From positions 172,164-236,163 of the forward strand of contig CAZGCT010000001.1 of the NCBI GenBank assembly GCA_964524325.1: a DNA stretch of 64,000 nucleotides, written 5' to 3'. The first letter of the stretch is position 1. Each line of letters starts with the position of its first letter. Below, one piece after another: positions 4,289-53,588 of this stretch. The notes beneath the pieces are model-generated. The model was not told where the DNA came from. It saw nothing but the letters and a program-made list of their open reading frames with translations, and made no database searches. The DNA comes from an uncultured Hyphomicrobiales bacterium. GTDB lineage: Bacteria; Bacteroidota; Ignavibacteria; Kapaibacteriales; UBA2268. The position numbers were made by a program, and so were the translations under genes.

Positions 4289-5479
4289 CTATATCAAATT
4301 CAAACCTTTTTCCAATCCAATTATTAAATCTTCAACATCTTCAATTCCAACAGAAAGACGCACCAACCCGTCGGTTATTCCAGCTTCTTTACGCAATTCC
4401 TTCGGCATACTTGTGTGGGTCATACTCGCAGGATGTTGAATTAATGATTCGACTCCCCCAAGGCTGACCGCAAGTTGCCATACCTCGACATTGTTCATCA
4501 ATACTTTTCCTGCTTCTAACCCTCCTTTTAACTCGAATGAAATAACACCGCCACCACCTTGGGATTGTTTCAAAGATAATTCATATTGAGGGTGTGATTT
4601 TAAATAAGGATACCACACTTTTTCGACTTTCGGACTCTTTTCTAAAAATTCAGCAATTTGTAATGCATTTTCGCAATGCTTTTTCATACGAAGTTCCAAT
4701 GTCTTTATTCCTCTGTGTACCAAGAAGGCATTGAATGGGTCGATAACACCACCAATGTGATTAGACATTTTTCTAAATAAACCATAATCTTCAGGGTTTT
4801 TTATTACAACAATCCCTGCAACTACATCGGCATGTCCGTTTAAAAATTTTGTCATACTATGAATAACAAAATCAGCTCCAAATTCAAAAGGTCTTTGCAA
4901 GATTGGACTCATAAATGTGTTATCGACTACAACTTTTGCGTTCCAGGAACGAGCCAATTCTGAAATTTTTTGTATGTCGCTAACAGAAAGAGTGGGATTG
5001 CCTGGGGTCTCGAAAAAAACCACTTTAGTGTTTTCGCGCATTACTTTTTCTACTTCTTGAATATCTGAGGTGTCGACAAAAGCAACCTCAATGCCAAATT
5101 TCGATAGGATTTGCGAAAGGAAGGTAGTTGTCGGTCCGTAAACTGAATTACCACAAACTACATGGTCTCCGCTATTAGTCAATGTAAGGAAAACAAGGCT
5201 TACGGCAGCCATCCCGCTTGCACATCCTATTGCCTTTGTACCTCCCTCCAATTCAGCAATTGCATCCTCCATAGCTTCAATTGTTGGATTTCTCATTCTA
5301 GTGTAGATAAAACCATCTTCCTCGCCCTTGAAAAGTCTTGCTCCATGTTCTGCGTCTTTAAATTTAAATGTTGAAGTTTGATAGATTGGAGGTACAACGG
5401 GACCAAATTCGTAATCCTTGATTCCAGAATGAACGCACTTTGTACCTAAACCCATTCCTTCATTCGTACTCATATCCAA
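4289..5479 (-). CDS. PLP-dependent Cys/Met-metabolism gamma-family enzyme, methionine gamma-lyase-like
   Basis: The length is about 396 aa. The PLP-lysine motif SMTKFLNGHADVVAG is present. The N-terminal Cys/Met-metabolism family signature is seen. Confidence 0.75.
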   Translation of the reverse strand: MDMSTNEGMGLGTKCVHSGIKDYEFGPVVPPIYQTSTFKFKDAEHGARLFKGEEDGFIYTRMRNPTIEAMEDAIAELEGGTKAIGCASGMAAVSLVFLTLTNSGDHVVCGNSVYGPTTTFLSQILSKFGIEVAFVDTSDIQEVEKVMRENTKVVFFETPGNPTLSVSDIQKISELARSWNAKVVVDNTFMSPILQRPFEFGADFVIHSMTKFLNGHADVVAGIVVIKNPEDYGLFRKMSNHIGGVIDPFNAFLVHRGIKTLELRMKKHCENALQIAEFLEKSPKVEKVWYPYLKSHPQYELSLKQSQGGGGVISFELKGGLEAGKVLMNNVEVWQLAVSLGGVESLIQHPASMTHTSMPKELRKEAGITDGLVRLSVGIEDVEDLIIGLEKGLNLI

Positions 5480-12186: not shown

Positions 12187-13908
12187 TTATTTTCTACTAG
12201 TAAGATTAATAATTAAATAGGTTAAACTAATCAAAGTTGCGATACCAGTCGCTATTAGACTGTAATATTGATATTCGGTTCCAGGTGGATAATCGGGTGG
12301 ACCGGGGACAAATATCTCATCTCCGTCGACAATGGTAGCTTCCTCTGGTTTTAGCCAAACTCTTTGTGCCCCGCGAATTACTCGAATTCTTGATTTTTTT
12401 GCTGTCGTTAGGTATCCACCAGCTTTATTGATATACCATTCGAAATTTTTTCCTTTCTCATAAGTAACATAGCCGGGATATTTCACCTGACCCCACACAT
12501 ATACACTTCCTTTGCTTTGAGGGAGCATAATTAAATCACCATCTGAAAGTAGAATATTATGGGCTTCGTTTTTTTTGACTATTAGTTCATATAGGTCGCA
12601 AGAAACAAAATGACCTTTCGAAAGTAATTCCATTTTGAAGCGAGTTGTATCCTCCATTGTTAAATTACTTTGCTTGAAGATGGAAAACAAGTCTATTGTT
12701 GGGTTTTCCCAAAAAGGACGTTGAGGGTAACTCCTTAAAATATATGATTTTGAATATTGTGGGCTACAAGATAGTCCCCCTGCAAGATTAATTAAATCTG
12801 CAACTCTTGTTTTGCCTGGTTCAATTGGGTAAACTCCCGGTTTTTGAACGCAGCCATAGATTCCAGCAACAGCAGTTGCTGTGTGTGCCTCTATTTTTCG
12901 CTCGCCAACAATAACATTCATAAAAGGTTCTAATTCTAAATCGACACTTAGGTCAAAATTTGTATCAAGCTGAACAGTTTTAATATCATTTTGGCTACGA
13001 ACAATAATATTTGTCGGGTCGGCATTATTTTTAAAACCTTTAGCAAAAGCAAATAAATCAGAAAGTTTGTCGCCTCTTTTAAAATAATATTTTCCAGGTG
13101 AAACAACTGCTCCAGAAATAGTAACATACTCAAAATTTGGAGGCAAGAATGGTACAAAAATTTCGTCACCCTCGCGAACATAGGGATCATTTTCGAAAGA
13201 ATTTTTGGATTTACTCATTTCTAAGTCGGCCTTACTGAAACCGTAGTTCTGGTTGTAGATTGTGATATTTCTGCTAGAATAGTAAAAATCCGTTGGAATT
13301 CCTTTATCTACTAATTCGGATTGGCGCTTTCTTTCGAGGTCTTCTACAAAAAGGGATGTTTCAAGTTTGTTAATAGGTACTTCCTGCGATGTAAATTCAT
13401 TATTTGCGATAGATACCACGTTCGAAATTCGATAACTTGCAGGAAGATAGTAAATTCCGGGTTTTTTTACGTTGCCATAAATTTTAACAAGGCAGGTCCT
13501 TGGTTTGTATAGGGAAAGATAAACATTAGCTTTTGGATTAAATTCTTTCACGATTTTTTCAACTTCATTTTTAACTTCCAATAGAGTTTTTCCCTTAACG
13601 TTCATGAAACCATATCGTGGCAGAATAAGCATTCCATCGCTCGATATCTTTGTCAATTCGGGATTAATATTTGCAGGGCTAACAAAAAAGGAAATAACAT
13701 CATTTGGACCAACATAATAAAATGTATCGCATACAACAGTTGTTGTTGGATAAATATCTTTTTCTATTTGAATTTGCTGTTGAAATTGGTTTTTAAACTC
13801 TTCACCAATGCCAGTTTCTTTTTGTAAAGTTGGTAAACCAGTTACCTGAGAATAGGAATTTATCGCAATGAAAAGGAAAATTACAACTAAACCGAGAAAA
13901 AAATTCAT
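12187..13908 (-). CDS. polysaccharide export outer-membrane protein (Wza/KpsD-like, Poly_export + SLBB domains)
   Basis: A signal peptide is present. SLBB-type motifs are repeated: VKIYGNVKKPGIYYL, VTISGAVVSPGKYYF and VYVWGQVKYPGYVTY. Confidence 0.75.
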   Translation of the reverse strand: MNFFLGLVVIFLFIAINSYSQVTGLPTLQKETGIGEEFKNQFQQQIQIEKDIYPTTTVVCDTFYYVGPNDVISFFVSPANINPELTKISSDGMLILPRYGFMNVKGKTLLEVKNEVEKIVKEFNPKANVYLSLYKPRTCLVKIYGNVKKPGIYYLPASYRISNVVSIANNEFTSQEVPINKLETSLFVEDLERKRQSELVDKGIPTDFYYSSRNITIYNQNYGFSKADLEMSKSKNSFENDPYVREGDEIFVPFLPPNFEYVTISGAVVSPGKYYFKRGDKLSDLFAFAKGFKNNADPTNIIVRSQNDIKTVQLDTNFDLSVDLELEPFMNVIVGERKIEAHTATAVAGIYGCVQKPGVYPIEPGKTRVADLINLAGGLSCSPQYSKSYILRSYPQRPFWENPTIDLFSIFKQSNLTMEDTTRFKMELLSKGHFVSCDLYELIVKKNEAHNILLSDGDLIMLPQSKGSVYVWGQVKYPGYVTYEKGKNFEWYINKAGGYLTTAKKSRIRVIRGAQRVWLKPEEATIVDGDEIFVPGPPDYPPGTEYQYYSLIATGIATLISLTYLIINLTSRK

Positions 13909-14029
13909 TTCGGCCTCATATTAATTTACAAAATTACAAAATATAAAGGCTTGTTTCAATTGGTTAAGAATTTAAGAATAAAACCAAAATTTGGCTATTT
14001 TAAATAAGCGATTTCTCTAAAATTCAAAG

Positions 14030-15643
14030 TTACATAATAGAAAAGTCGATATATGGTTCTTTTAACTCGGCAATGGCATTGACGACAAGTTCTGCTAATC
14101 CACCAACAAATAACCTAGATTTGTCCTTTGCACCATAAAAATCAAAAATATCCCGAATTTGTCCTTTACAATTCGAGCAAGGTGCACAAACATATTTGGG
14201 CATTTCGGGTTCGATTAGTTCATTTTTGAATGCGTCAAGAATTTGCTTGAACTTTTTACGTCCGCTAATGTAATTCTTCCAATCCTGAAAATTGTAAGAA
14301 GACATTATTGCAAAGCCACTGCCTCCTCCACAGCAATAATTATCAACTCCGTGTGGTTCCATCTCTCTAAATTTTGGGGCAATATATTTTAAGACTCTGC
14401 GTTGTGGTTCTACAATTCCCATCATTCTAACTATATTGCACGGGTCATGAAGTGTTACTGGGAAGTAATTTTTTTCAGGGTTGAATTTTATCTTTCCGCC
14501 AAAAACGATTTGCTCAATTAAAGTCATTGCATTAATGGTTTTTATCTCGTTTCCAAAGATTCTTTCAGCAATTATTCCTAAAGATTTGGATTCGTGTCCG
14601 CATTCTCCCATGATAATTGCTTTCACTCCTAATTTTTTTGCAATTTCAAAATGTTTGTGTGCAATTCTAGTAAATTGGATATCGTCGTACCAAACTCCAT
14701 AATTAACACCGTCGTAACCAATTAGCTCACTTGATAAAGTCCAACTTATGCCTGCAGCATTTAGCAAAATTGTAAATGCAGCTGGATTTTCGGGCCAAGA
14801 CAAAAATTCACCTGCATTGTGCAAGAGTAGGTAATCTGCCCCGGCAACATCCCAATTAGACTCGATCTTAATTCCAAGTCTATCTGCTAAGTCCTCGTTA
14901 ATAAAACTGACATTGCTTTTAACAACTTCGGGTGACATTCCAGTAGAAGAGCCTTTGGTAAGGTGTTTCACAGTACCTTTTTCGTGCAACTCCTTTGGTG
15001 ATATATCAAATTCTTGGCTAAATAGTTTTCTTATTTCATGGGTAATTAATCCATTATCTATACCTATTGGACAAGTTTGCCCGCAGCGTCGGCAGATTGT
15101 GCATCGGTAGCTTAATTCAACAAGTCGAGATATCAAAGTCCAGTTCAATTCGATATCTCCATGTTGGAACTTCTTAAAAATAAGGCTTCCAGGCTTTACA
15201 TACTTAAAATATAACCTTCTTAGTACCTCTGTCCTATATGTTGGTCTGTATATTTCTGCATGATTACTTGCTTCATAAATTTGGCAGGCATCGTTGCATG
15301 TTTGACACTTTGCACAATGCTCCATAGTTAAGATAAGTGGTTGAAGGAAAGTCCAATTGTTTTCCTTTGAGAAAAGTTTAATTAGGGCAGAAATAAATTT
15401 TTCTACTAGTTCTTGTTCTTCTTTAGGTGTTTTTGGTTTAAGTACTCCGACTGCCATTACTCCGTCTAAAGAATCATCGTAGTTTTGAAGAGTTGGCTCA
15501 CTAAGTTTTTTGAAACCTGGTAGTTCATCCAATTTGTCGTATGGTGGGGGAAGCTTGATACTATCGTTTGGAGAAATTTCACATAATGGTCGTAAATTTG
15601 GATTACTAAAATCTTTAACTTTTATTTTCCTTCTCGCGACCAA
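14030..15643 (-). CDS. dsrK: HdrD/DsrK-like CCG-domain iron-sulfur oxidoreductase
   Basis: There are two 4Fe-4S motifs, CAKCQTCNDAC and CTICRRCGQTCP. A complete CCG domain (C-X34-CC-X47-CAPC) follows. The gene lies immediately downstream of a NarI-like membrane protein and of dsrC. Confidence 0.6.
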   Translation of the reverse strand: MVARRKIKVKDFSNPNLRPLCEISPNDSIKLPPPYDKLDELPGFKKLSEPTLQNYDDSLDGVMAVGVLKPKTPKEEQELVEKFISALIKLFSKENNWTFLQPLILTMEHCAKCQTCNDACQIYEASNHAEIYRPTYRTEVLRRLYFKYVKPGSLIFKKFQHGDIELNWTLISRLVELSYRCTICRRCGQTCPIGIDNGLITHEIRKLFSQEFDISPKELHEKGTVKHLTKGSSTGMSPEVVKSNVSFINEDLADRLGIKIESNWDVAGADYLLLHNAGEFLSWPENPAAFTILLNAAGISWTLSSELIGYDGVNYGVWYDDIQFTRIAHKHFEIAKKLGVKAIIMGECGHESKSLGIIAERIFGNEIKTINAMTLIEQIVFGGKIKFNPEKNYFPVTLHDPCNIVRMMGIVEPQRRVLKYIAPKFREMEPHGVDNYCCGGGSGFAIMSSYNFQDWKNYISGRKKFKQILDAFKNELIEPEMPKYVCAPCSNCKGQIRDIFDFYGAKDKSRLFVGGLAELVVNAIAELKEPYIDFSIM

Positions 15644-15647
15644 TTTT

Positions 15648-16598
15648 CTATCCTTTGTTTTGAATTTGTGTTGTTGTTATTATGAGCCAAGTTTTCCGAC
15701 CATCGGAGCCAATATGAGGTGCTGACCATTGAACTGGTAAATTAAGTTGTTCGTTAAGCCTCTTGCGAATATGCTTATTTGAAATATTTGGTTCGTCGTC
15801 CCATCTGACTTTGTGATATGTGAAGTACTTCATGTAGAAATGTGTCATGTGAGTGAATGGCAAGTAGAACATAAAAAAGGAGAGAAGATAAAAATGTACA
15901 TTTCCAATTAGAGGTGTATTTTTTATTAATGATAAGTTCAAGAATCCTTGGTAAAAGCCAATTATTTCAACTACTGCATTTTTTGAAGAAAGCAACCAAA
16001 TTAATGTTGTAGCATAAAGCGAACCAATCAAAATAATATTGAAATAGTGGCTAAAACTTGAAAATAATCTCAAGTTTTCATCGAAAATTCTTTTAAAAAG
16101 CAAAACAATAGATCCCAAAATTCCTAAAAAAGTGATTAACCAAAGTAAATAATTGAGAAAAAGAATGTATTTATGTGATTGAGTTTTACCTGCGGAGGGA
16201 TACAATCCCACAAGTAAATAGACTAATATTAGTAATGTGAAGACTATGTAAAGGTACATTGCGTAATGAAAAGGTGCCGAACCAAACCACAAAGAACGAT
16301 TGTGTTTCCACACTCCTTTTAATAAGAAAATTTCTTGAAGCATTGACCATAGTTTATGTATTTTTCCGTTTTTAATAAGTTCTGCCCTAAAATCAAGCTC
16401 ATCTGGGTTAGAACCAACATTCTTGGAATCAATCTTTTTGTTGGGTATAGGGTAAAGCTCCCAACGAAGATGCACTGGAGATTTAGCAATTCTAATTCCC
16501 TTTGCAAGAGCAATTGTAATAAATGTCAAAAAACTAAAATAAAAAACAAGATGAAGTAATTCCATAATCTGTACAATTTTTCCGAAAATTAACTCCAA
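15648..16598 (-). CDS. dsrM: NarI-like membrane-bound cytochrome b (DsrM/HdrE-like)
   Basis: The protein has about six TM helices with conserved His in the helices. It shows the nitrate-reductase gamma-like architecture. It lies 4 nt upstream of the CCG protein. Confidence 0.5.
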   Translation of the reverse strand: MELIFGKIVQIMELLHLVFYFSFLTFITIALAKGIRIAKSPVHLRWELYPIPNKKIDSKNVGSNPDELDFRAELIKNGKIHKLWSMLQEIFLLKGVWKHNRSLWFGSAPFHYAMYLYIVFTLLILVYLLVGLYPSAGKTQSHKYILFLNYLLWLITFLGILGSIVLLFKRIFDENLRLFSSFSHYFNIILIGSLYATTLIWLLSSKNAVVEIIGFYQGFLNLSLIKNTPLIGNVHFYLLSFFMFYLPFTHMTHFYMKYFTYHKVRWDDEPNISNKHIRKRLNEQLNLPVQWSAPHIGSDGRKTWLIITTTQIQNKG

Positions 16599-16636
16599 AA
16601 GTAATAAAAACTAAAATAAAGAAGTTTAGATAAAAC

Positions 16637-16678
16637 AAAACCTTGAACAAAGCGAAGTTATTCCTTGTTCAAGGTTTT
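16637..16678 (-). terminator. perfect 14-bp hairpin (AAAACCTTGAACAA / TTGTTCAAGGTTTT, 14-nt loop) followed on the minus strand by a U-rich tract, between dsrC and dsrM
   Basis: Read directly from the sequence. The downstream minus-strand sequence is GTTTTATCTAAACTTCTTTATTTTAG. Confidence 0.5.
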
Positions 16679-16691
16679 TAACAAAGATAAA

Positions 16692-17009
16692 TTATACACA
16701 ACCAGTTGGCTTTGTAAGCCCCGCTACTTTGCAAGCTCCTTTTGCAGGTCCGGAGGGAAATAGGTCGTAAATTTGTTTTAATGTGAAGCCAGTTTCTTTG
16801 CACAATTTACGAATCATCGGTGCAATACCATACTGTTTGTAATAGTTTCGTAAATAATTAATTACTTTCCAATGTTCGGCTGTAAGTTCCGAAACTCCTT
16901 CTGTAGTCGCAAGTGCAACAGCAACCCTTTCGTTCCATTCTTCTGGATTAGCCAAAAAACCTTCTTCATCAACTTCAATCTTAATTTCATTCCACTCGAA
17001 TACTGGCAT
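16692..17009 (-). CDS. dsrC: DsrC-family sulfur-relay/substrate protein with both conserved C-terminal cysteines
   Basis: The protein is 105 aa. The C-terminus, GACKVAGLTKPTGCV, shows CysB-X10-CysA-V as in bona fide DsrC. TusE carries only the final Cys. Confidence 0.8.
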   Translation of the reverse strand: MPVFEWNEIKIEVDEEGFLANPEEWNERVAVALATTEGVSELTAEHWKVINYLRNYYKQYGIAPMIRKLCKETGFTLKQIYDLFPSGPAKGACKVAGLTKPTGCV

Positions 17010-17383
17010 TTTTATACCTTAGCAAAATTGTACATAACACAAAACCTACAAGATACTTTATAATTCATTTAAAAAAAATTCAAAATTAATTGTTTTGAGA
17101 TTCATTTCTATAAAGAATAATATTTATTAATTTTTCTTTTAATAATCTTCAAAGCTTTTGTCCCTTTCTTGTTATTTTTTGTAATTTAGCTTGTAGTAAT
17201 AATTTCTTGATAAAGTTAAATTTCTGGTGTTTTGGTTATAAAAAAGCCAATACCATTCATAAGTTTCCAACACAGGGTTTCTTCTAACTTATCCCTATCC
17301 TGCAAAATTTTGTCATTTATCTTAATCGTATTTAAACTCAAATAGTACCATCGCGAAGTTTTGAAAAGATTCTAAACAACACA

Positions 17384-17809
17384 TTACATATTCATTCCTT
17401 TGCGAATATTTTCTATTTCTTCGAGAAGGTTGTCATGTTTAGTTTCATCGTAAAGTAAATACTCCAATAAATACTTAACAATTGGAGAGGTGAGATCTTG
17501 TAAGGCTTCTTTTGCAATAGCAATTGTTTTCTTTTCTACCTCATTGTGTTCTTCCACAAGCGACCAAATGTTCGATATTTCTTCAGTAAAAAGTGTAATA
17601 GGCTGTTTTTCATAATTATCGATGATAAGCTGTTGAACACGGCGATGCATCACAGAGTCCTGGCGTATTATTTCCATTACTAAGTGGACTAATGGGTTGT
17701 CCGTTTTCTTGATAATTTCGGTAGTATTTCTAATGGTGGCATCCTCGATTTTCTGCCAATCTTTTAAAATTTCAACTAGTTTTTCGATGTTACCTTTTTC
17801 TGTTTCCAT
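17384..17809 (-). CDS. hypothetical acidic helical protein
   Basis: A 141-aa ORF lies between sat and dsrC on the same strand. No motif was recognised. Confidence 0.45.
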   Translation of the reverse strand: METEKGNIEKLVEILKDWQKIEDATIRNTTEIIKKTDNPLVHLVMEIIRQDSVMHRRVQQLIIDNYEKQPITLFTEEISNIWSLVEEHNEVEKKTIAIAKEALQDLTSPIVKYLLEYLLYDETKHDNLLEEIENIRKGMNM

Positions 17810-17965
17810 TTACACTCCAAAAATTTTACTAAAAATTAATATTTTTGTTACGAATTTACAACTTTTATTGAATATCTTGAAATTCTTGCTGCTTTTGTCA
17901 TCAATAAACTTTTTTAATTAAGTTTGTTGCTGCTATTTAAATACTTAGAACTAAACTTAAAACTG

Positions 17966-17987
17966 CTTTGTTTAGTTGAAAACAAAG
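17966..17987 (-). terminator. 8-bp hairpin (CTTTGTTT / AAACAAAG) with a T-rich tail downstream of sat
   Basis: An inverted repeat lies about 130 nt after the sat stop. On the minus strand it is followed by CAGTTTTAAGTTTAG. Confidence 0.35.
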
Positions 17988-18117
17988 TGGAGGATTTAAT
18001 CCAAGTTAATAAATTGGCAAATGGAACTTTCGACAAGTCAAGATTGTTTTTGGTTTTGCTAAAATAAGCTATTGAAAGAATTAACATTTCAAATTTGTGG
18101 GTTTAAGCATGTTTCTA

Positions 18118-19305
18118 TTAATAGGTTTCTTTAAAGCCAGAATAATATTCTCTCAATATAGCAATTACTTCTGGGCGTGAAAATTCTTTAGGTACGTCTT
18201 GCCCCTCGGTTAAAGCTTTTCGTAGCATTGTCCCACTTAAAAGTAGTCTGTATTCTTTTGAATGAGGGCAAGTTTTCATAGATACCATACCATCGCACTT
18301 AAAGCAATAAAATGTCCAATCTGTTTTAAGTGGTTTACAAAGGAGTGCACCATCCCATAGCTCGTCGAATATCTCTTGTGCTTCAAAAGGTCCATAATAA
18401 TTCCCAACACCAGCGTAATCGCGACCAACAATTATGTGTGTGCAGCCATAGTTTTGGCGGATGATTGCATGCAACAATGCTTCTCTTGGCCCAGCATATC
18501 TCATATCCAAATGATGACCTCCGATGAGAACCGAGTCCTTGACAAAGTAATTTTTTACAAGTGCATCTATACAACGCAATCTAACATCGGTAGGAATGTC
18601 GCCAGGCTTTATTTTTCCAACTAATTGGTGGATATAAATTCCATCACTGACTTCTAAAGCAATTTTTGCAAGATATTCGTGCGACCGGTGCATTGGGTTT
18701 CGAACTTGCATGGCAGCTATAGTTTTCCAACCTCGCTCAGCGAAAATTTGTCTTGATTCCTCAGGTCTTTGATAAATGCCATTGTAATGTATAGGGAAGA
18801 ATCCTTCGCTTAACACTTTTACTGGGCCTGCGAGATTAATTTCGCCTTGTTCCATAACCATCTTTGCACCAGGATGTTCGAAATCTGTTGTTTTGAAGAC
18901 ATTCTTGCATTCAAGTTCTTTTGATATTTTGTATTTCTCTTCTACTTTCATAGTTGCTATAATTTCTCCGTGTTCATCGGAATATAGAGCTATTTGGTCT
19001 CCAATTCTAATTTTACTTGCAATTTCCTTTTCAGTTGATAAAGTAATTGGAATAGGCCAGAATAACCCATTCTTACTTGGCATTTTCATTTCTTTGCAAA
19101 CACTCTTCCAATCGTCATAACCCATAAAACCAGTAAGTGGTGTGTACCCCCCAATTCCCATCATGATTAAATCGTTGCATTCTCGGCTTGTAATGCTTAT
19201 TTTCACTAACTTTTCAGCTTTCTTTTTTTCTTCCAAAAGTTCTTCGCCTTCAAGGAGATGTTTAATAAGTGCTGGGCTGCCGTGGGGGCTGATTAATTTT
19301 GACAT
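18118..19305 (-). CDS. sat: sulfate adenylyltransferase (ATP sulfurylase)
   Basis: The motifs [13 protein letters not shown] and VGRDYAGVG are diagnostic of the homo-oligomeric ATP sulfurylase family. The length is about 395 aa. Confidence 0.85.
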
Positions 19306-19330
19306 AATTTCTCCTTTGATTGTTGTTTTA

Positions 19331-19338
19331 CAAACTTA
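19331..19338 (-). promoter_or_regulatory. candidate -7 promoter element TAAGTTTG (TAnnTTTG-type) about 22 nt upstream of the sat start, followed by the SD AAAGGAG
   Basis: The motif matches the FCB-group -7 consensus. No matching -33 TTG was found at canonical spacing. Confidence 0.2.
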
Positions 19339-19479
19339 GTGGCTTTTACAAGATACATATATCATAAAGTAGAATACCCCATTTTAGAAAAAATTCTTTT
19401 TTATTAAAATATTATCATTTATTCCAATATTCAAAATACAACGATATTTATACAAAATTCCCAGTTTGCTTTTATCACT

Positions 19480-20130
19480 CTATAAACAAATTGCTTTTTG
19501 TACCAAATCTATTAATTCTTGCTTCGCTTTTTCTAAATTATCATTTACAATTATGTAATCGAATTTATCTTTCATTTTCATTTCCATTTCTATTCTTTTG
19601 AATCGTTCTTCAAGTTGCTCTTGAGTTTCAGTTTTCCTTGATACAAGTCTTTCTTGTAGCACATCCAATGAAGGTGGGGCAACAAAAATCAACAGGGCCT
19701 TTTCGGGATAAAGCTTTTTTATTGATAATGCTCCTTTAACATCGATGTCGAAAACTATTGTTTCACCTTTTTCAAGACTATTTTCAACTTCCTTTTTTAA
19801 TGTTCCGTAGTAGTGACCAAAGATACTTTCGTATTCAATTAATTCGTTTCGGTCTATTAGGTTCCTAAATTCTGTCTCAGATAGAAAATAATAATCTTTA
19901 CCATTGATTTCGTTGTTTCTCGGTGGCCTTGTTGTTGCAGAAATTGAAAATTTGAAGTTTGGAAAAGCTAACAAAAGGAAGCGAGCCAAAGTGGTTTTAC
20001 CAGCTCCACTTGGTGCCGAAAGTACAATCAGTTGTTTTTGGGGTTGCATATTTTTAGCACTCTGTATTGCATTTACAAATTTAATGAAAAAGCTAAATAG
20101 GAATTTCATTTCGAAATAATTAAAAGCCAT
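19480..20130 (-). CDS. gmk: guanylate kinase
   Basis: The motifs SAPSGAGKTTL, ATTRPPRNNEINGKDYYF and FDYIIVND are present. The likely true start is the internal Met at 20049. Confidence 0.8.
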   Translation of the reverse strand: MAFNYFEMKFLFSFFIKFVNAIQSAKNMQPQKQLIVLSAPSGAGKTTLARFLLLAFPNFKFSISATTRPPRNNEINGKDYYFLSETEFRNLIDRNELIEYESIFGHYYGTLKKEVENSLEKGETIVFDIDVKGALSIKKLYPEKALLIFVAPPSLDVLQERLVSRKTETQEQLEERFKRIEMEMKMKDKFDYIIVNDNLEKAKQELIDLVQKAICL

Positions 20131-20168: not shown

Positions 20169-21788
20169 TCAAATTGAGACAACAAAATGGTAAAAGGGGG
20201 GCAATTCAACAATTTCCATGATTTTCTTTTGAAAATTGTTTTCCCCAAATTGTAAAATAGGGAATATTGTTGCAATACTTCTTTCTTGAAGTGTTCCATT
20301 GGGAAAGAGTAGATTGTTCAACGCAAAGACTTCTTTATGCTTCTGAATGATATTTCTTTTTTCAGCAGAGAATATTTTTGTAACATATGATTCAAGTTGT
20401 CGAAATGATTTTGTAAAATGAGCTTCCCCGCTAATGTTCAATGATTTGTCTAATTTTGAGCCAATTTCTTTAAGTCTGGAAAAAATTTCTGAAAACTCGG
20501 CAGAAATGCCCTTGATTTCATCTTGCAGAAGCAAATTGCGGTTGGCATTATAGATTTTTTCTTCGATCTCTTTTTTGGGTTTAAAAAGGAAATTAATTCC
20601 ATATTCCTCTAAAATATTCATGTATTTATTATGTAAAAATGTTATGGAATGGCGGGGTATAATTGTTGGCATTGTTATCCCGTACCAGGCATATAATTCT
20701 TTTAATTGGGTAGTGTAACCAATTTCGCTTGGACCAAGAACAGAAGCGATATTTGGAAGCAAATAGTCTTGGCAAATTGGGCGCAGAAGAACGTTTGGCG
20801 AGAATTTGTCTTGATTCTTTTCAAAAAACATAATAATATCTTTTTCTGAGATAGTAATATCATCAAGAATCCACATTTTGTTTTTGGTATTCCATTCAAC
20901 TTTTGCCCTTCTTTTATCTGAGTGGAAAAACAAATTAGGCAAAGAGTTTTTCGCTTGAATATGATAGCCTTGCGACCTTATCAGGTGATTTGCAGTTTCG
21001 ATTACAGTAAAACTAGTTCCAAAATTTTCAAATTCCCGCGATAAAATTTCTGCAAAAGCTTTTTGTTTCCTAAATTCTGATGCTGCTACGAAAAGTAACC
21101 CAAAGTCTTTGAAAAGGTAGTTATGAATACTTTGAAATGTATCGACAAGCCTATCCTTTTGGTCGAATAGTTCAAGTAGAAATTTTGAAAATGTTGGGTT
21201 GGATTCATCCTCTGAGTTAGTAAACAAGTAGGATTCTATAAGCTTCGAGTATTTGGTCGAAATAACGTATTCCGACAAAGAATTTTTCAAATTATTAATG
21301 CATTTTTCTTCTATAGGAATTTCTAAAACATCATTTTTTTTGTCCAGAAGAACTACTTGGAATGCCTCTACGCAATCGTGGTCGTTGTCCTCTATCCAGA
21401 ATATTGGGACAAAATTAAAGATTGGAAATTTTTCCTTTAACATTTGTGAGGTTTTGATTGCTGTTAAAGTTTTGTAAAATGTATAGAGTGGTCCACCGTA
21501 AATTCCGGGCTGTTGCCCGGCGACAACGACCAAAGTATTGTCCTGATCAATTAATTTTAGATTTTTTAATTGTTCTTCTGAAAGATCAAATTTGCTATTG
21601 CAATCTCCAACGATTTTCTTAAAAATCTTACGATTAGTGTAAGAGTTTAATTTTTTATCAATAAGATAAGAATTGGATAGTAAATTTTCTAAGTAAACAA
21701 ATCTCTCTTCGAAGAAGGAATTTTTTTTTAGAAAATCGCAAAACAACTTTGAAAAACCAGGTATTTCATCGAAGTTAAGTTTAATCAT
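20169..21788 (-). CDS. bshC: bacillithiol biosynthesis cysteine-adding enzyme BshC (putative)
   Basis: The protein is about 540 aa. The motifs GQQPGIYGGPLYTFYK and PIFWIEDNDHD match the conserved GQQ..GPLYT..K and P.FWI..EDHDFDE blocks of BshC. Confidence 0.65.
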   Translation of the reverse strand: MIKLNFDEIPGFSKLFCDFLKKNSFFEERFVYLENLLSNSYLIDKKLNSYTNRKIFKKIVGDCNSKFDLSEEQLKNLKLIDQDNTLVVVAGQQPGIYGGPLYTFYKTLTAIKTSQMLKEKFPIFNFVPIFWIEDNDHDCVEAFQVVLLDKKNDVLEIPIEEKCINNLKNSLSEYVISTKYSKLIESYLFTNSEDESNPTFSKFLLELFDQKDRLVDTFQSIHNYLFKDFGLLFVAASEFRKQKAFAEILSREFENFGTSFTVIETANHLIRSQGYHIQAKNSLPNLFFHSDKRRAKVEWNTKNKMWILDDITISEKDIIMFFEKNQDKFSPNVLLRPICQDYLLPNIASVLGPSEIGYTTQLKELYAWYGITMPTIIPRHSITFLHNKYMNILEEYGINFLFKPKKEIEEKIYNANRNLLLQDEIKGISAEFSEIFSRLKEIGSKLDKSLNISGEAHFTKSFRQLESYVTKIFSAEKRNIIQKHKEVFALNNLLFPNGTLQERSIATIFPILQFGENNFQKKIMEIVELPPFYHFVVSI

Positions 21789-38193: not shown

Positions 38194-39405
38194 TTACGAA
38201 AGTTTGTATTGATTAATCTTTCGGTACAAGGTTCGCTCGCTTATTCCAAGGGCTTTTGCAGTTCTACGGCGATTTCCTTTAAATTTTCTTAGGGTATATG
38301 AAATAATTTCTTTCTCGATATTGGTTAAATTCAAATTATCTGGTAAAATATTTGGGAAACCATCATTATCGACAATATGATATGTTCCCGGCCTTAGTTC
38401 TGTAATATTCGAATTTACCGAATCCATCTTACTATTCAATTCGTTTAAAGCTTCTTTTACCAGGTCCACATCCTTTTTAATTTCAAGTAAAGTTCTAAAA
38501 ATGATTTCTAAGCCTAGTTGGGTTTCTTTTCCGGAAGGAACATAAAGTAAAGATGTTTCCTTAGGTTGTTCAATTCTTACATGGGGTGGTAGTGCTGGTG
38601 GAAGGTACCTTTTTAAAACCTCAAGGGTTATATACCCAGTTTTTTCAAGTTTTAATATAGTTTCTATGAGATTTTTTAATTCCCTAATATTTCCAGGCCA
38701 TTGCAATCCACGAAGGATATTCAAAGCTTCCAACGATACCCCTTGAAAAGAGATCCCAAGTTGCGAACAAGTTTTTTGGGCAAAAAAATCGACCAGAATT
38801 GGAATATCCTCTGGACGTTCACGTAATGGAGGAAGAATAATATGCAAATTTTTTAGTCTGTAAAACAAGTCTTGTCTGAAAGTCCCTTTGTATATTTCCT
38901 CTTCAAGCTTTTTATTTGTAGCAGCAATCACTCGTACTTCAACCTTCCTGACTTCAGTTGAACCTAGTCGATTGAATTCCCCTGATTCAAGTACACGAAG
39001 TAATTTAACCTGCGTTCCGACGGGCATTTCTCCAATTTCGTCCAAGAAAATTGTTCCGCGATTTGCTACTTCGAAATATCCTTTTCTTTGTTCGTAAGCT
39101 CCGGTAAAGGCACCCTTTTCGTGTCCAAAAAGTTCGGACTCTAGCAATGTTTCAGGTATTGCGCCACAATTAACACTTATGAAAGGAAATTTTCTTCTTT
39201 TGCTAAGTTGATGAATGGCGTTGGCGACTACTTCTTTTCCAGTTCCAGTTTCACCCGTGATTAAAACATTAAGGTCCGTGGGGGCAACTTTAAGAATGGT
39301 ACGGAAGATGTCAAGAATTTTTTCAGATACACCAACAAGTCCATATTTGTTTTCTAGTAATTCAAGAGTGGCTTTATTAATTATTATTTCTTCATTCATT
39401 GGCAT
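38194..39405 (-). CDS. sigma-54-dependent transcriptional activator lacking an N-terminal sensor domain (PspF-like)
   Basis: The AAA+ domain starts at about residue 20 (GETGTGKE). The GAFTGA motif is present. A C-terminal Fis-type HTH reads RTAKALGISERTLYRKI. Confidence 0.85.
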   Translation of the reverse strand: MPMNEEIIINKATLELLENKYGLVGVSEKILDIFRTILKVAPTDLNVLITGETGTGKEVVANAIHQLSKRRKFPFISVNCGAIPETLLESELFGHEKGAFTGAYEQRKGYFEVANRGTIFLDEIGEMPVGTQVKLLRVLESGEFNRLGSTEVRKVEVRVIAATNKKLEEEIYKGTFRQDLFYRLKNLHIILPPLRERPEDIPILVDFFAQKTCSQLGISFQGVSLEALNILRGLQWPGNIRELKNLIETILKLEKTGYITLEVLKRYLPPALPPHVRIEQPKETSLLYVPSGKETQLGLEIIFRTLLEIKKDVDLVKEALNELNSKMDSVNSNITELRPGTYHIVDNDGFPNILPDNLNLTNIEKEIISYTLRKFKGNRRRTAKALGISERTLYRKINQYKLS

Positions 39406-40054
39406 TCTTTCTTAACTTTGTCCATTCATCCCAACCACCGGGATAAATAAAAACATTTTTGTAACCGAGGTGAATTAAATCGTACGAAACTTTGTGGCTT
39501 GCGTCGCAAGAACCTCCTTCGCAATAGACAATAATTACTTTTTGTGGGTCTATTGGCAAAGTTGCTATCTTTTGGAAATACAAGTTTAGGTCCTGCTCGT
39601 AGGCAAAGATATTTATAGCTTTGCCAATATGGGCTTTATTGTACTCATCTGGTGAACGTGCATCAATTAGTATGAGATTTGGAGACTCAAGGTATTTAAT
39701 TAATTGATTGTAGGTAACAATGGGAATTTCATCTGAACGTTTTTGAGGATTGATTTTATCAACTTGCTTTTGTTCTATTTGGGTTGCTTTCTTTGCTTTC
39801 GTTGTATCCTTTAAAGTAAAAGTAGCTGTGTCTAATTTTTTTATATCTTCTTTGCTTGCAGTTTCTTTTGGGGGTACATTCGAAATTGTATCAGAAAGAA
39901 GTTTTTCTAATATTGTGTCCGAAACTATTGCTGGTTTCTTAAATAAAATAATTCCAGACGGGTTTAAATAGTTGTAAATTACAGCAACGAAAGAAGTTAA
40001 GCCTAAAATAAAAAGAGCTTCTCTGGAAATTTGTTTCCAATCTATTTTGCGCAT
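39392..40054 (-). CDS. membrane-anchored rhodanese-domain protein
   Basis: An N-terminal TM helix is followed by a rhodanese fold (LIDARSPDEY). The active-site loop is VYCEGGSCD. The gene overlaps the activator gene by 14 nt. Confidence 0.7.
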   Translation of the reverse strand: MRKIDWKQISREALFILGLTSFVAVIYNYLNPSGIILFKKPAIVSDTILEKLLSDTISNVPPKETASKEDIKKLDTATFTLKDTTKAKKATQIEQKQVDKINPQKRSDEIPIVTYNQLIKYLESPNLILIDARSPDEYNKAHIGKAINIFAYEQDLNLYFQKIATLPIDPQKVIIVYCEGGSCDASHKVSYDLIHLGYKNVFIYPGGWDEWTKLRKNANE

Positions 40055-40055: not shown

Positions 40056-40442
40056 TTAAAATCCTCTTTCTTTTTTAATTAATTCAAAAGCAAAGTTAAT
40101 TTCTTGAATTTTATGCGTTGCAAAATTGCGAATTTCTTGCCCAAGATTTTGGACAAAGTCCGGGTGATACTCTTTAACTTTTCTTTTATAAGCCATTTTA
40201 ATTTCATCTATTGTAGAATTTCGGTCTATACCAAGAATTTGATAAGCTTCGTTAAGGGAAATGTTATTTATGTTCTTTTCAAAGTTCCGATAAAATGAAC
40301 TTGTTTTCTTCCATTCATTCTCAATTTCTTGTTTTAAAGCATCATCTTCTTCAAGAGGAAGTTCATAATGTCGATATTCAAATTCTTTATCGGTTAAATT
40401 CGACTTGATAATCTTCCAAATTCTTCCAAAAATTTGCGACAT
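40056..40442 (-). CDS. J-domain protein
   Basis: A C-terminal J domain with an HPD motif (KEYHPDFVQNL) is present. Confidence 0.6.
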   Translation of the reverse strand: MSQIFGRIWKIIKSNLTDKEFEYRHYELPLEEDDALKQEIENEWKKTSSFYRNFEKNINNISLNEAYQILGIDRNSTIDEIKMAYKRKVKEYHPDFVQNLGQEIRNFATHKIQEINFAFELIKKERGF

Positions 40443-43544: not shown

Positions 43545-44211
43545 GAAAGTTTATATCTATTCTGCATACGAGAGATTTTGGCATTGGACTCAAGCAATTT
43601 TGATTTTCTTTTTAGCCTTCACTGGCTTCGAGGTACATGGTGTTTATATTTTCTTTGGGTACGAAAATGCTGTAATTTACCATAGAATTGCTGCCTATCT
43701 TTACATCATATTGGTTATTTTCACTATTTTTTGGCATTTTGCTACAGGACTATGGAAACAGTATATTCCTACGCGAAAATTCATTAAGGAACAAATTGAG
43801 TTTTATATTACCGGTATTTTTCGTAATGCTCCTCATCCTATTAAAAAGACTGTTTTAAGCAAACTTAATCCATTACAAAAGCTTACTTACTTTGCATTAA
43901 AAGTTTTGGTAATTCCAATAGTGGGTACATCTGGTTTATTCTATCTTTTTTATCGGTACCAAACCGACTTAGGGGTACAAGCAATTAATATTGCTTCATT
44001 GAAATACATTGCAATAATTCACACCGCCGGTGCAATTTTGCTGGTTGCTTTTATTATTGTGCATATTTATTTAACTACAACTGGAACTACTATTTTTTCA
44101 AATCTAAATGCTATGTTGACTGGGTACGAAGAAATAGAAACAAAGGAAGAATCGGATAAAAATTTCGTCCAGAAATCAGAGTTGCCGGTTCAAAATTTAG
44201 AAGAAAATTAA
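43537..44211 (+). CDS. cytochrome b561/HydC/FdnI-family membrane b-type cytochrome subunit
   Basis: RFWHWTQAILIFFLAFTGFEVHG and four TM helices carrying His ligands are present. The gene overlaps the cytochrome c gene by 8 nt. Confidence 0.7.
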   Translation: MGRKVYIYSAYERFWHWTQAILIFFLAFTGFEVHGVYIFFGYENAVIYHRIAAYLYIILVIFTIFWHFATGLWKQYIPTRKFIKEQIEFYITGIFRNAPHPIKKTVLSKLNPLQKLTYFALKVLVIPIVGTSGLFYLFYRYQTDLGVQAINIASLKYIAIIHTAGAILLVAFIIVHIYLTTTGTTIFSNLNAMLTGYEEIETKEESDKNFVQKSELPVQNLEEN

Positions 44212-44232
44212 TTTAAGTCATAAATTTGGAGA

Positions 44233-44754: not shown

Positions 44755-44766
44755 TTGGGAGGATTT

Positions 44767-47376: not shown

Positions 47377-47386
47377 TTATTCTCTC

Positions 47387-49224: not shown

Positions 49225-49233
49225 TTCAACCTC

Positions 49234-49527: not shown

Positions 49528-49530
49528 CTC

Positions 49531-52595: not shown

Positions 52596-52606
52596 AACTC
52601 TCTATT

Positions 52607-53512: not shown

Positions 53513-53588
53513 TTTATGCTGCCCAAATTTTAATTTAGTTTCTTCTAATAAAGCAAATACGATATTTTTAAAAAATATTGTTAAGATT

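Follow-up and report, generated by a model that had tools for sequence, protein, structure and literature searches.

A sat–orf141–dsrC–dsrM-2–dsrK-2 locus derived by in situ deletion from a dissimilatory sulfate-reduction supercluster and its probable DsrAB-independent redox module

Results and Discussion

Synteny with related loci shows that a sat–dsrC–dsrMK-like gene cluster in the 64-kb stretch of DNA analysed here (the window) is an in situ deletion derivative of a dissimilatory sulfate-reduction supercluster of the Kapabacteria/Ignavibacteria type, from which two segments have been lost. We consider it rather probable that the quinol-to-DsrC redox module left behind works without a locally encoded DsrAB.

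Gene content of the locus

Five intact open reading frames occupy positions 14030–19305 and encode ATP sulfurylase (Sat), a protein of 141 aa, a DsrC with two cysteines, a cytochrome b of the NarI type and an Fe–S protein with a single CCG domain; these and all other features of the locus given below lie on the minus strand. The gene order and the positions of the five frames agree with a sequence-only reading of this DNA, which had also recorded dsrAB and aprAB as missing. This absence is borne out by tblastn searches, which detected no homologues of AprA/B, QmoC or DsrA/B/D/N/L in the window and 10 kb beyond each end (~84 kb). The same arrangement is present at ~100% identity in L001 (Logan SRR7473445) and L002 (NCBI GCA_900096875.1), and the same reduced layout recurs at 93% identity in L091 from an independent sample (SRR8371833); the layout is therefore not an assembly artefact. 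Elsewhere in the window, ACIII (ActA–F) and a caa3 oxidase are encoded at 46081–61080.

Origin by two deletions

The locus is bounded by two syntenic anchors assigned with Pfam. Upstream lies gmk (19480–20130; Guanylate_kin), whose adjacency to sat is common to the relative L174, and downstream a Poly_export/SLBB polysaccharide-export gene (12187–13908), which also follows dsrK in L174. Between these flanks L174 carries sat–aprBA–hyp–CxxCxxCC–qmoC–dsrABDN–orf145–dsrL–dsrC–dsrM–dsrK, and its identities to the window are 66% for gmk, 83% for sat, and 68% for both the polysaccharide-export gene and the gene that follows it. Nine close relatives (74–81% DsrK identity) have CxxCxxCC–qmoC–dsrABDN–orf145–dsrL–dsrC–dsrMK. 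In JGI loci the cluster continues further upstream to sat–aprBA. The same gene order extends across Kapabacteria, Ignavibacteria and, without sat–apr, Acidobacteria-like loci.

Comparison with L174, L093 and L088 places the first deletion scar in the 308-bp spacer at 17810–18117, a site that in relatives holds ~9 kb comprising aprB, aprA, a small hypothetical gene, the gene for a CxxCxxCC protein, qmoC, dsrA, dsrB, dsrD and dsrN. In some relatives the small hypothetical gene gives a weak Ogr/Delta-like match. The second scar is the 374-bp spacer at 17010–17383, where relatives have dsrL (~1.75 kb). No remnants of the lost genes were found in either spacer by tblastn, blastx or blastn-short. 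In a neighbour-joining tree of orf141, DsrC, DsrM and DsrK, the window falls, with 100% bootstrap support, inside a clade whose eight other members all have dsrAB to dsrK on the fetched DNA, and sat too in the four that reach far enough upstream. The ancestral order was gmk–sat–aprB–aprA–hyp–CxxCxxCC–qmoC–dsrA–dsrB–dsrD–dsrN–orf145–dsrL–dsrC–dsrM2–dsrK2–polysaccharide export, with one deletion in situ taking aprB to dsrN and the other dsrL. The placement of sat beside a minimal dsrC–dsrMK unit is, on this synteny, no designed architecture but the scar of these deletions.

Set against the Kapabacteria/Ignavibacteria dsr cluster described in 2019 (PMC6338057), the shared genes are orthologous and in the same order, as are the flanks in L174, whereas the window lacks aprBA, two small genes, qmoC, dsrA, dsrB, dsrD, dsrN and dsrL, has no dsrTMKJOP nearby and is lower in G+C (34% in its lineage, 36.5–41% in relatives). 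Its root-to-tip distance is the longest in the tree, and this long branch may simply be an effect of the lower G+C. A second lineage has undergone parallel reduction, leaving orf143–dsrC–dsrMK in L014 and orf147–dsrC in L111.

DsrC and Sat

The product of dsrC (16692–17009; 105 aa) ends in CKVAGLTKPTGCV and has both redox-active cysteines of the C-terminal arm, Cys93 and Cys104, with ten residues between them. It matches PF04358 (E = 7.5e-40), and its best solved relatives are the DsrC proteins of Pyrobaculum, Desulfomicrobium and Desulfovibrio (E = 1e-33 to 1e-35), compared with 7e-8 for TusE; with 82 bits it falls short of the 191 that the TusE equivalog requires. Together with the two cysteines, these results uphold its identification as a genuine DsrC rather than TusE. 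Identity is 82–91% to the DsrC of the Kapabacteria/Ignavibacteria cluster type and 90–91% to that of full-cluster relatives. The DsrC proteins of sulfate reducers (PDB 2V4J chain C, 2XSJ chain C, 1JI8 and 1SAU) match over their full length (E = 1e-30 to 1e-35) and have the same motif in the C-terminal arm, CK[VM]AGLxKPTGCV, with both cysteines; the window DsrC differs in having no DsrAB partner encoded nearby. By motif match only, a candidate Bacteroidota-type −7 box, TAATTTTG, lies at 17088–17081, 72 nt upstream of dsrC. Downstream of the gene is a terminator-like hairpin (16637–16678) with a 16-bp stem followed by UUUUGUUUUAU, for which the minimum free energy is −19.9 kcal/mol (z = −6.0 relative to shuffles).

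Sat (18118–19305; 395 aa; PF01747 and PUA_2) matches PF01747 with E = 5.8e-86 and exceeds the cut-offs of both NF003166 (509 bits, cut-off 387) and TIGR00339 (370 bits). Identity to relatives is 77–83%, the upper value being reached with L174 and L092/L093, where aprBA comes next. As judged by these matches, the window gene is orthologous to the sat standing first in the sat–aprBA–...–dsr supercluster of relatives.

The DsrM-2/DsrK-2 pair

The NarI-like dihaem cytochrome b gene, dsrM-2 (15648–16598), scores 25.6 bits against Nitrate_red_gam (cut-off 22.9), and translation probably begins at the ATG at 16565, for a product of 305 aa. The neighbouring dsrK-2 (14030–15643) encodes a cytoplasmic Fe–S protein of 537 aa with two 4Fe–4S motifs (Fer4_8) and one CCG domain. 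Its best NCBIfam match is DsrK (NF045796; 297 bits, cut-off 400), with GlpC at 23 and GlcF at 19 bits, so that by these scores it groups, as proposed, with DsrK/HmcF/TmcB rather than with GlpC/GlcF. DsrM-2 reaches only 24 bits against NF038037, for which the cut-off is 300. The canonical paralogues in the relative L009 score 734 (DsrK) and 484 bits (DsrM), above the same cut-offs. DsrK-2 is 73–81% identical to its counterparts in the Kapabacteria/Ignavibacteria cluster type and 74–81% to those of full-cluster relatives, but shares only 25% identity with the canonical DsrK that these relatives also encode; for DsrM-2 the identity to counterparts is 49–61% in the cluster type and 58–61% in relatives. 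We conclude from these scores and identities that the pair is a DsrM-2/DsrK-2 paralogue and not the canonical DsrMK of DsrMKJOP. The DsrMK architecture assigned by the sequence-only reading thus stands in that a NarI-like and a CCG protein adjoin dsrC, but not as regards the canonical pair.

In DsrK-2 the cluster-ligand cysteines, of the Fe–S motifs and the CCG domain alike, are all invariant, and nine substitutions fall at positions at least 90% conserved (family median two). DsrM-2 keeps nine of ten conserved histidine columns (His in at least half of 16 aligned DsrM-2 sequences). Its loop at residues 53–82 has diverged, including H53N, and one loop carries seven changes at sites where at least 90% of the family agree. 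To our knowledge no biochemical characterisation of DsrM-2/DsrK-2 exists; the 25% identity to canonical DsrK and the place beside dsrC suggest DsrC as its substrate. The canonical DsrMK(JOP) of Archaeoglobus and Desulfovibrio, a menaquinol:DsrC-trisulfide oxidoreductase (Barbosa et al. 2024, PMC10861901), shares the pairing of a NarI-like dihaem b subunit with an HdrD-like subunit having two 4Fe–4S motifs and a single CCG domain, encoded beside dsrC, and the same chemistry would be expected of the window pair; the window locus differs in lacking DsrJOP, and the DsrM-2/K-2 family in often lying away from dsr genes, beside PAS kinases or MerR-like regulators. [quoted passage not shown]

The orf141 protein

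The product of orf141 (17384–17809; 141 aa) has no Pfam or NCBIfam match, and is 62–79% identical to its counterpart encoded in relatives between dsrN and dsrL, with 66–79% for the 'hyp' of the Kapabacteria/Ignavibacteria cluster type. On this evidence orf141 is a conserved dsr-cluster gene, the unnamed 'hyp' before dsrL in Kapabacteria, Ignavibacteria and Acidobacteria, in keeping with its suspected role as an accessory component. A C-terminal MYPYGGY tail, otherwise conserved in the family, is missing in the window and goes with a neighbouring dsrL.

The AF2 model (pLDDT 92.5) consists of four long helices forming two repeated helix–loop–helix halves, and the invariant residues of the family are E22 and D51/S52/H55 in the first half and E92 and E122-x-x-H125 in the second. 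Profile matches were obtained to DF1 (E = 0.004), DFsc (0.01) and MJ0754 (0.013), and sub-threshold Rubrerythrin matches in 21 of 42 family members; fold searches were unspecific, their matches covering a helical hairpin only. The four-helix architecture and putative diiron motif are shared with rubrerythrin/ferritin-like bundles (PF02915, MJ0754, the designed 'Due Ferri'), from which orf141 differs in having no match at the curated threshold, Ser where the first-half ExxH glutamate is expected, and no rubredoxin domain, its metal binding being only predicted. The model and these motifs make orf141 a probable rubrerythrin-like protein of small size with a di-metal site, normally working with DsrL-2 and DsrC.

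Selection on the retained genes

Between the window and L091 (dS 0.14–0.19), dN/dS is 0.025 for dsrC, 0.084 for orf141 and 0.117 for sat, compared with 0.26 and 0.19 for the flanking gmk and bshC. The spacers are 81–87% identical (scar 1, 86.8%) and the genes 92–96.5%. Strong purifying selection has thus acted on dsrC, orf141 and sat after the two segments were lost, and these genes are not decaying. As selection has preserved the leftover genes intact, their function probably does not depend on a sulfite reductase encoded nearby. The dsrM2 gene is under weaker constraint (dN/dS 0.38), and seven conserved loop residues have changed; a loss or shift of function in the membrane half may be under way.

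Weighing other explanations

The missing genes might have moved instead of being lost, with dsrAB, dsrD/N, aprBA, qmoABC, dsrL and dsrTMKJOP at other loci of the genome; dsrC–dsrM2K2–orf141 would then serve ordinary dissimilatory sulfite/sulfate reduction and sat would feed AprBA. We hold such fission to be possible but doubtful. The inspected ~84 kb is only part of the genome, the contig alone being reported as 533 kb, and a pathway in operation would leave dsrC and sat under strong purifying selection, as seen here. There is also precedent for a split, since L003, L004 and L019 have orf145–dsrL–dsrC–dsrMK with no dsrAB within 10 kb upstream. L003 and L004 encode a DsrK-like protein, P0040, named by NCBI from Ignavibacteria GWB2_35_12, a genome listed with all DSR genes, dsrAB included (Thiel et al., PMC6338057). 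Fission would, however, need two separate precise relocations (aprB to dsrN, and dsrL) while sat, orf141 and dsrC stayed in place, and two deletions are simpler. No dsr or apr match lies elsewhere in the window or its 10-kb margins, whereas in L008 and L009 dsrTMKJO(P) lies no more than 10 kb from dsrK2. Of the DsrB sequences listed (120 cluster representatives and 15 members of the closest cluster), none has 533,415 bp as its longest contig, the length recorded for the window's DsrK, orf141 and Sat, and orf141 has lost the tail that accompanies dsrL.

That the leftover dsr genes are neutral passengers drifting toward pseudogenes after loss of the catalytic genes is disfavoured by the data, and we judge it very unlikely. 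The elevated dN/dS of dsrM, the substitutions in DsrM-2 and DsrK-2 and the long branch would fit such decay, but every frame is intact in two lineages ~7% apart in nucleotide sequence, the catalytic Cys and His are retained, spacers evolve faster than genes, and dsrC, orf141 and sat have dN/dS below that of flanking housekeeping genes. Scarcely credible, finally, is the reverse history, in which sat–orf141–dsrC–dsrMK is the original module and aprBA–qmoC–dsrABDN and dsrL were inserted later in relatives. DsrM-2/K-2 does occur without any nearby dsr gene at 46 of 76 scorable GTDB species-representative loci, so the module can exist independently; yet the tree nests the window among carriers of dsrAB to dsrK, the order is shared across Kapabacteria, Ignavibacteria and, minus sat–apr, Acidobacteria-like loci, the same genes would have had to enter the same two places in many lineages, and the window orf141 lacks an otherwise conserved tail.

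Proposed function

[quoted passage not shown] From what is known of the families, electrons from menaquinol would enter the two b haems of DsrM-2 and then DsrK-2, where two [4Fe–4S] clusters would hand them on to the one CCG (noncubane) cluster, which would return oxidised DsrC (a trisulfide, persulfide or disulfide involving Cys93/Cys104) to the dithiol. Against such a relay, menaquinol has little reducing power towards ordinary protein disulfides. The oxidised DsrC would come not from a neighbouring DsrAB but most likely from a sulfurtransferase or a source of sulfane sulfur, in the metabolism of thiosulfate, polysulfide or tetrathionate, or else from thiol oxidation. Since aprBA is gone, the most plausible task of Sat is to activate sulfate for assimilation.

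Gene content of the locus

The locus comprises five intact open reading frames running head to tail on the minus strand, which encode ATP sulfurylase (sat, 19305–18118), a 141-residue protein (orf141, 17809–17384), DsrC (dsrC, 17009–16692), a NarI-like membrane protein (16598–15648) and a 537-residue Fe-S protein (15643–14030). Comparison with L091, a strain of 93% nucleotide identity from a different sequencing run, and with L174, a relative carrying a full dsr cluster (GCA_037478895.1), places the likely real start of the membrane protein at the ATG at 16565. Sat scores 509 bits against NF003166 (cut-off 387) and 370 bits against TIGR00339 (cut-off 323), with PF14306 and PF01747 both present, and the Fe-S protein contains Fer4_8 and one CCG stretch. 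A 308-bp spacer (17810–18117) separates sat from orf141, and a 374-bp spacer (17010–17383) separates orf141 from dsrC. A hairpin followed by a U-run lies 3′ of dsrC (−19.9 kcal/mol, z = −6.0). A sigma-70 promoter and terminator scan gave sites no commoner than in shuffled sequence, and missed this long-loop hairpin. The expression TAnnTTTG picks out plausible −7 boxes ahead of sat, dsrC and dsrM, which are motif matches only, and a search of 13800–19700 against Rfam with E up to 1 gave no match.

DsrC exceeds the curated cut-offs of PF04358 (136 bits, cut-off 24.9; E = 7.5e-40) and TIGR03342 (122 bits, cut-off 53.5) and falls far below that of the TusE equivalog NF008562 (82 bits, cut-off 191). 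The protein ends in CKVAGLTKPTGCV, which carries Cys93 and Cys104; in the C-terminal arm, ...GACKVAGLTKPTGCV, these are the penultimate CysA and, eleven positions upstream, CysB, and the arm motif is close to those of the D. vulgaris and P. aerophilum proteins. Solved DsrC structures match with E values of 1e-26 to 1e-35, the nearest being those from Pyrobaculum, Desulfomicrobium, Desulfovibrio and Archaeoglobus (1e-30 to 1e-35), whereas the TusE-type structure 7SYB matches at only 7e-8. Allochromatium DsrC matches at 8e-26. On these comparisons the protein is assigned as a genuine DsrC, DsrC proper rather than TusE, as the sequence-only reading had held from its two cysteines. As an observation that reading was correct in every particular, since the reading frames, the family matches and the genes of an aerobic respiratory chain elsewhere in the window were all confirmed.

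The membrane pair is a second DsrMK paralogue

The two genes following dsrC had been described as having the DsrMK architecture. A NarI-like protein and an HdrD-like protein with a single CCG domain are indeed encoded, but they belong to a second paralogue, DsrM-2/DsrK-2, and not to the canonical DsrMK of DsrMKJOP. The Fe-S protein sides with DsrK (297 bits), and likewise with HmcF and TmcB, rather than with GlpC/GlcF (about 20 bits). It has in common with canonical DsrK two 4Fe-4S motifs and a single CCG domain, the latter distinguishing both from HdrD (PMC10861901). It does not reach the DsrK equivalog NF045796 (400 bits), nor does its partner, at 24 bits, reach the DsrM equivalog NF038037 (300 bits). 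The comparison locus L009 has two pairs. Its second pair fails the same thresholds (DsrK-2, 304 bits; DsrM-2, 30 bits), whereas its canonical DsrK (734 bits) and DsrM (484 bits), encoded in a separate cluster with a DsrT-like gene, dsrM, dsrK, dsrJ and dsrO, exceed them. With the window DsrK, the DsrK of the second pair shares 80% identity and the canonical L009 DsrK 25%. We therefore identify the window pair, by sequence, as the 'dsrM-2/dsrK-2' genes listed for Candidatus Thermonerobacter by Thiel et al. 2019 (PMC6338057). The same gene order is found after dsrC in L008–L010, L088, L090 and L174, with identities to the window of 73–81% for K and 49–61% for M. Cysteines 110/113/116/120, 181/184/187/191, 402, 437–438 and 486/489/492 of DsrK-2 are invariant in 11 sequences. 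We found no published biochemical characterisation of the DsrM-2/K-2 family in the literature.

Origin by deletion in place

In all the close relatives retrieved (L008, L009, L010, L088, L089 and L090; DsrK-2 74–81% identical), the genes CxxCxxCC-qmoC-dsrA-dsrB-dsrD-dsrN-orf145-dsrL, in which orf145 is a homologue of orf141, lie upstream of dsrC-dsrM-dsrK. The same is true of L012, L013 and L015 (DsrK-2 69–70%). In JGI metagenome loci centred on orf141, the cluster reaches further upstream to sat-aprB-aprA and a small Ogr-like gene, with sat 77–83% identical to that of the window; the order with sat-aprB-aprA is that published for Thermonerobacter (PMC6338057).

The direction of change is settled by L174, where the order is gmk-sat-aprB-aprA-hyp-CxxCxxCC-qmoC-dsrA-dsrB-dsrD-dsrN-orf145-dsrL-dsrC-dsrM-dsrK; a Poly_export/SLBB gene and one more come next. 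In the window, gmk-sat-orf141-dsrC-dsrM-dsrK precedes those same two genes, and the window products are identical to those of L174 at 66% (gmk), 83% (sat), 78% (orf141), 90% (DsrC), 61% (DsrM), 80% (DsrK), 68% (export gene) and 68% (the gene after it) of positions. The two long spacers fall exactly where aprB to dsrN and dsrL, respectively, sit in L174. Because L174 has the full cluster between the same flanking genes, we conclude that the window layout arose in place, through two losses, one of some 9 kb comprising aprB to dsrN and one of some 1.8 kb comprising dsrL. Synteny of the flanks was found with L174 only, and not with L008 or L009. A neighbour-joining tree built from the four proteins in common nests the window, with 100% bootstrap support, in a clade with eight others, every one of which has dsrAB to dsrK on the DNA fetched. 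Searches for remnants of the deleted genes in both spacers and throughout the window (tblastn of the relatives' proteins, blastx with E up to 50, and blastn-short) returned noise only. The full cluster with dsrM-2/K-2 and a 'hyp' gene was described in 2019; the documented in-place reduction, with the retained genes under selection, is new here. A parallel reduction has occurred in a separate lineage, represented by L014 (orf143-dsrC-dsrMK) and L111 (orf147-dsrC, dsrMK being absent), in each case after a DUF4139 gene; orf143 and orf147 are further homologues of orf141.

Several 'binchicken' MAG records among the comparison loci (L008, L010, L013, L014 and L017) are titled 'uncultured Hyphomicrobiales bacterium'. 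They carry dsr loci of Kapabacteria/Ignavibacteria type, 66–81% identical to the window, and these taxonomic labels therefore look wrong.

Selection on the retained genes

Three assemblies that are the same or almost the same in sequence have the reduced layout, and L091 (SRR8371833) shows the order bshC-gmk-sat-orf141-dsrC-dsrM. Since the deletions are common to the window and L091, the divergence between them (dS 0.14–0.19) reports selection after the loss. This comparison extends from bshC through dsrM, with dsrK outside the L091 coverage. The dN/dS ratios are 0.025 for dsrC, 0.084 for orf141 and 0.117 for sat, set beside 0.19 and 0.26 for the flanking genes bshC and gmk and 0.38 for dsrM, and the spacers are 81–87% identical where the genes are 92–96.5% identical. 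From the low ratios and the lesser conservation of the spacers, DsrC, orf141 and Sat are clearly maintained under purifying selection.

DsrM is less constrained than these three. Seven positions conserved at 90% or above are changed in DsrM-2, all of them in the loop spanning residues 53–82 (H53N, E54K, G61V, E66D, W70F, W71R and E82K); the other nine conserved His columns are retained. This loop may have been an interface with a partner since lost. The L091 and window proteins differ at 38 of 305 residues, many of them within the loop. DsrK-2 departs from the family at nine positions conserved at 90% or above, where the family median is two; no cluster-ligand cysteine is among the nine, and the cofactor ligands are retained.

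No other tip of the tree lies as far from the root as the window (0.57, compared with 0.42–0.48), a distance that we do not rely on as a sign of relaxed selection: the lineage is also lower in G+C (window 34%, L091 33%, full-cluster relatives 36.5–41%), and branch-length comparisons are confounded by this A+T-richness. Long-distance dN/dS against the relatives is uninformative owing to saturation of synonymous sites, and the L091 comparison was used instead.

The fate of dsrAB

No homologue of AprA/B, QmoC or DsrA/B/D/N/L was found in the window or in the 10 kb beyond each end (about 84 kb). The sequence-only reading had drawn from the cluster a capacity for dissimilatory sulfur oxidation or reduction. 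This is not supported: AprBA and DsrAB are absent from the window and its 10-kb flanks, so that at the locus, to which the statement applies, the sulfate-reduction pathway is incomplete, and we find no evidence there of respiration or oxidation via Dsr. Surveys that have met DsrC or DsrMK in an assembly with no DsrAB usually deem them false positives or the result of incompleteness (PMC8477390, PMC10504309).

The cluster could instead have been split, with dsrAB located elsewhere in the genome, away from the retained genes. Split clusters do exist: in L003, L004 and L019, the 10 kb upstream of orf145-dsrL-dsrC-dsrMK contain no dsrAB, and the DsrK-like protein encoded by L003 and L004 (P0040) is named by NCBI from Ignavibacteria GWB2_35_12, whose genome is listed by Thiel et al. 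as having dsrAB (PMC6338057). Two precise relocations are nevertheless a less simple account of the window than two clean deletions. The DsrK, orf141 and Sat of the window are on record for a 533,415-bp contig. A search with the DsrB of locus L093 placed none on the window's contig among the 120 cluster representatives listed, and none of the 15 of 63 listed members of the closest 90% DsrB cluster is on that contig. Overall, we consider it somewhat more probable than not that the whole genome is devoid of DsrAB. Two DsrB candidates for the window organism, the proteins P0522 and P0391, were rejected as belonging to other organisms; P0522 led us to L174.

The orf141 family

The suggestion that orf141 might be an accessory component is borne out by its neighbourhoods, since it is a conserved gene, published as 'hyp', of dsrL-containing dsr clusters. 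The family, for which neither Pfam nor NCBIfam has a model, is small: grouping 5.8 billion proteins at 90% identity leaves it 132 clusters, and at 50% identity it has 451 representatives (E up to 0.001). In 80 metagenome loci scored by tblastn, the usual order is dsrAB(-dsrD)(-dsrN)-orf141-dsrL-dsrC, followed by dsrM-2/K-2 or the canonical dsrMKJO. In the published dsr-cluster descriptions that we found, the gene is shown either as 'hyp' or as a hypothetical with no label.

Searches of the window protein against Pfam, Rubrerythrin (PF02915) included, and against NCBIfam gave no match; 21 of 42 relatives give sub-threshold matches to PF02915, the best with E = 0.0064. Its AlphaFold model consists of four long helices (pLDDT 92.5). 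The sequence is an internal repeat whose invariant residues are E22, D51, S52 and H55 (first half) and E92, E122 and H125 (second half). Set against a twofold E ... ExxH pattern, E92 and E122xxH125 are present in the second half, and the first half reads D51-S52-x-x-H55, with Ser replacing Glu. The family profile aligns with designed diiron proteins (E 0.004–0.01), and fold searches were unspecific. Given the confident four-helix model and the repeated invariant residues, we predict that orf141 is probably a di-metal, rubrerythrin-like protein.

The C-termini of the relatives read ...KGMYPYGG[YI], and those of the window and L091 read ...KGMNM; L014 and L111 are also tail-less. Scored for a YP[YF] tail and an immediately downstream dsrL, 46 homologues have both, 7 the tail only, 5 dsrL only and 12 neither, an association (Fisher p = 1.6e-5, non-redundant homologues, loci L008–L171) in which shared ancestry is ignored. 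Four of the five proteins scored as having no tail beside dsrL have xPY tail variants. The pattern suggests that the tail may serve an interaction with DsrL. Two points are new here, namely that dsrL-containing dsr clusters have in orf141 a conserved and probably di-metal component, and that its tail is linked to dsrL.

Tail-less homologues (56–58% identical) stand alone in L110, L114, L115, L117 and L118, with orf141 at about 10000, divergent from an mreB-mreC-mreD operon. No dsr gene lies within 10 kb of them, so membership of the family does not strictly imply a dsr cluster; mreBCD are the only neighbours of these copies and are uninformative.

Distribution of DsrM-2/K-2

A GTDB scan gave at least 80 species-representative loci whose DsrK-2 shares 56% identity or more with that of the window. 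By record title they come from Kapabacteria, Ignavibacteria, Zixibacteria, Calditrichota and Acidobacteriota, and further from Gemmatimonadota, Syntrophaceae/Smithella, Spirochaetes and Planctomycetes. On the DNA fetched for each (up to 10 kb on either side, less for short contigs), 46 of the 76 scorable loci lack dsrAB, dsrC, dsrL and orf141. It follows that DsrM-2/K-2 is a widespread module, and one that can occur physically apart from dsr genes. At some of the dsr-free loci, the pair is adjoined by a PAS histidine kinase and response regulator or by a MerR-like regulator.

In a 5.46-Mb Kapabacteria chromosome (OY762428.1; L016/L007), the pair has no dsrC nearby, and an orf145 homologue (P0161) lies at another position. 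Here, as at other loci that have no dsrC nearby, either a PAS histidine kinase with response regulators lies after the pair or a MerR-like, Cys-rich regulator lies before it. Six Smithella/Syntrophaceae MAGs (L062, L063, L064, L071, L075 and L078) have dsrA-dsrB-dsrD-dsrN-dsrC, dsrM-2/K-2 and then the canonical dsrMKJOP; with two MK pairs in succession, both paralogues thus coexist in one operon. In Gemmatimonadota MAGs (L035, 493–3387; L065, 1029–1871), unusual DsrC-family proteins adjoin DsrM-2/K-2 and a PAS kinase. One is a 215-residue tandem double-DsrC-like protein in which the terminal cysteines are absent; others, of 270–380 residues, have an N-terminal HTH, and one of these has a DsrC-like domain at its end (...GLPRPPGCA).

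Possible function and neighbouring genes

DsrC and DsrMK are usually read as markers of DsrAB-based sulfur respiration. The locus amounts to a natural knock-out series, the catalytic genes having been deleted in place while DsrC, the 'hyp' protein and Sat remain strongly constrained. If the genome is without DsrAB, then DsrC and DsrM-2/K-2 function independently of it, genome surveys would be wrong to count such clusters towards a potential for sulfate or sulfite reduction, and the pair would offer a clean system for finding the function of the second DsrMK paralogue. We regard the locus as a good lead for a DsrAB-independent DsrC/DsrMK function, and not as evidence for Dsr-based respiration or oxidation.

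By analogy with the canonical system (PMC10861901), menaquinol would pass electrons to the b haems of DsrM-2 and thence to the CCG cluster of DsrK-2, which would reduce an oxidised DsrC species on Cys93/Cys104. With aprBA gone, Sat would most simply activate sulfate for assimilation. A tentative and rather doubtful extension is that a Kapabacteria-like aerobic lineage, respiring through ACIII and caa3, discarded DsrAB, AprBA, Qmo and DsrL and kept under selection a quinol-driven DsrC cycle with a diiron-like orf141 partner. DsrC would then be a DsrAB-independent carrier of sulfane sulfur or a disulfide, through which the membrane quinone pool is tied to cytoplasmic sulfurtransferase chemistry (thiosulfate, polysulfide or tetrathionate) or to thiol homeostasis, and DsrM-2/K-2 a general quinol:DsrC oxidoreductase distinct from DsrMKJOP.

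Candidate oxidants or sulfur donors for DsrC would be a rhodanese-domain protein (39392–40054, minus strand), encoded between a sigma-54 activator (38194–39405, minus) and a DnaJ-domain protein (40056–40442, minus), and the products of a plus-strand cluster at 41943–45996: an octahaem cytochrome c, a cytochrome b and two YeeE/YedE-type transporters. This cluster, about 25 kb from dsrC, is possibly related to tetrathionate, thiosulfate or sulfite. Its first gene encodes a 533-residue multihaem cytochrome c matching PF11783 ('Cytochrome_cB', 2e-62), which we take to be the family of octahaem tetrathionate reductase; cytochrome b561 (43537–44211) and two 'Sulf_transp' proteins (44233–44754 and 44755–45996, the second with an extra C-terminal domain of about 200 residues) follow, and no TusA or DsrE gene adjoins them. 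L174 has a rhodanese gene three genes upstream of gmk-sat, of which the window has no detectable homologue.

The aerobic chain remarked on in the sequence-only reading was found on the minus strand at 46081–61080, where alternative complex III and a caa3-type oxidase are encoded, with ActA (60508–61080), ActB (57284–60391), ActC (55926–57287) and ActD/E (54779–55918), then probably ActF, followed by a cytochrome c, SCO1, CoxI (50186–51826), CoxIII, CoxII (48253–49224) and a UbiA-family prenyltransferase that is probably haem O synthase. Genes of thiol or sulfur assimilation also lie near the cluster on the minus strand, namely bacillithiol synthase BshC (20169–21788), two genes upstream of sat, and a Cys/Met-metabolism PLP enzyme (4289–5479), about 9 kb downstream of dsrK.
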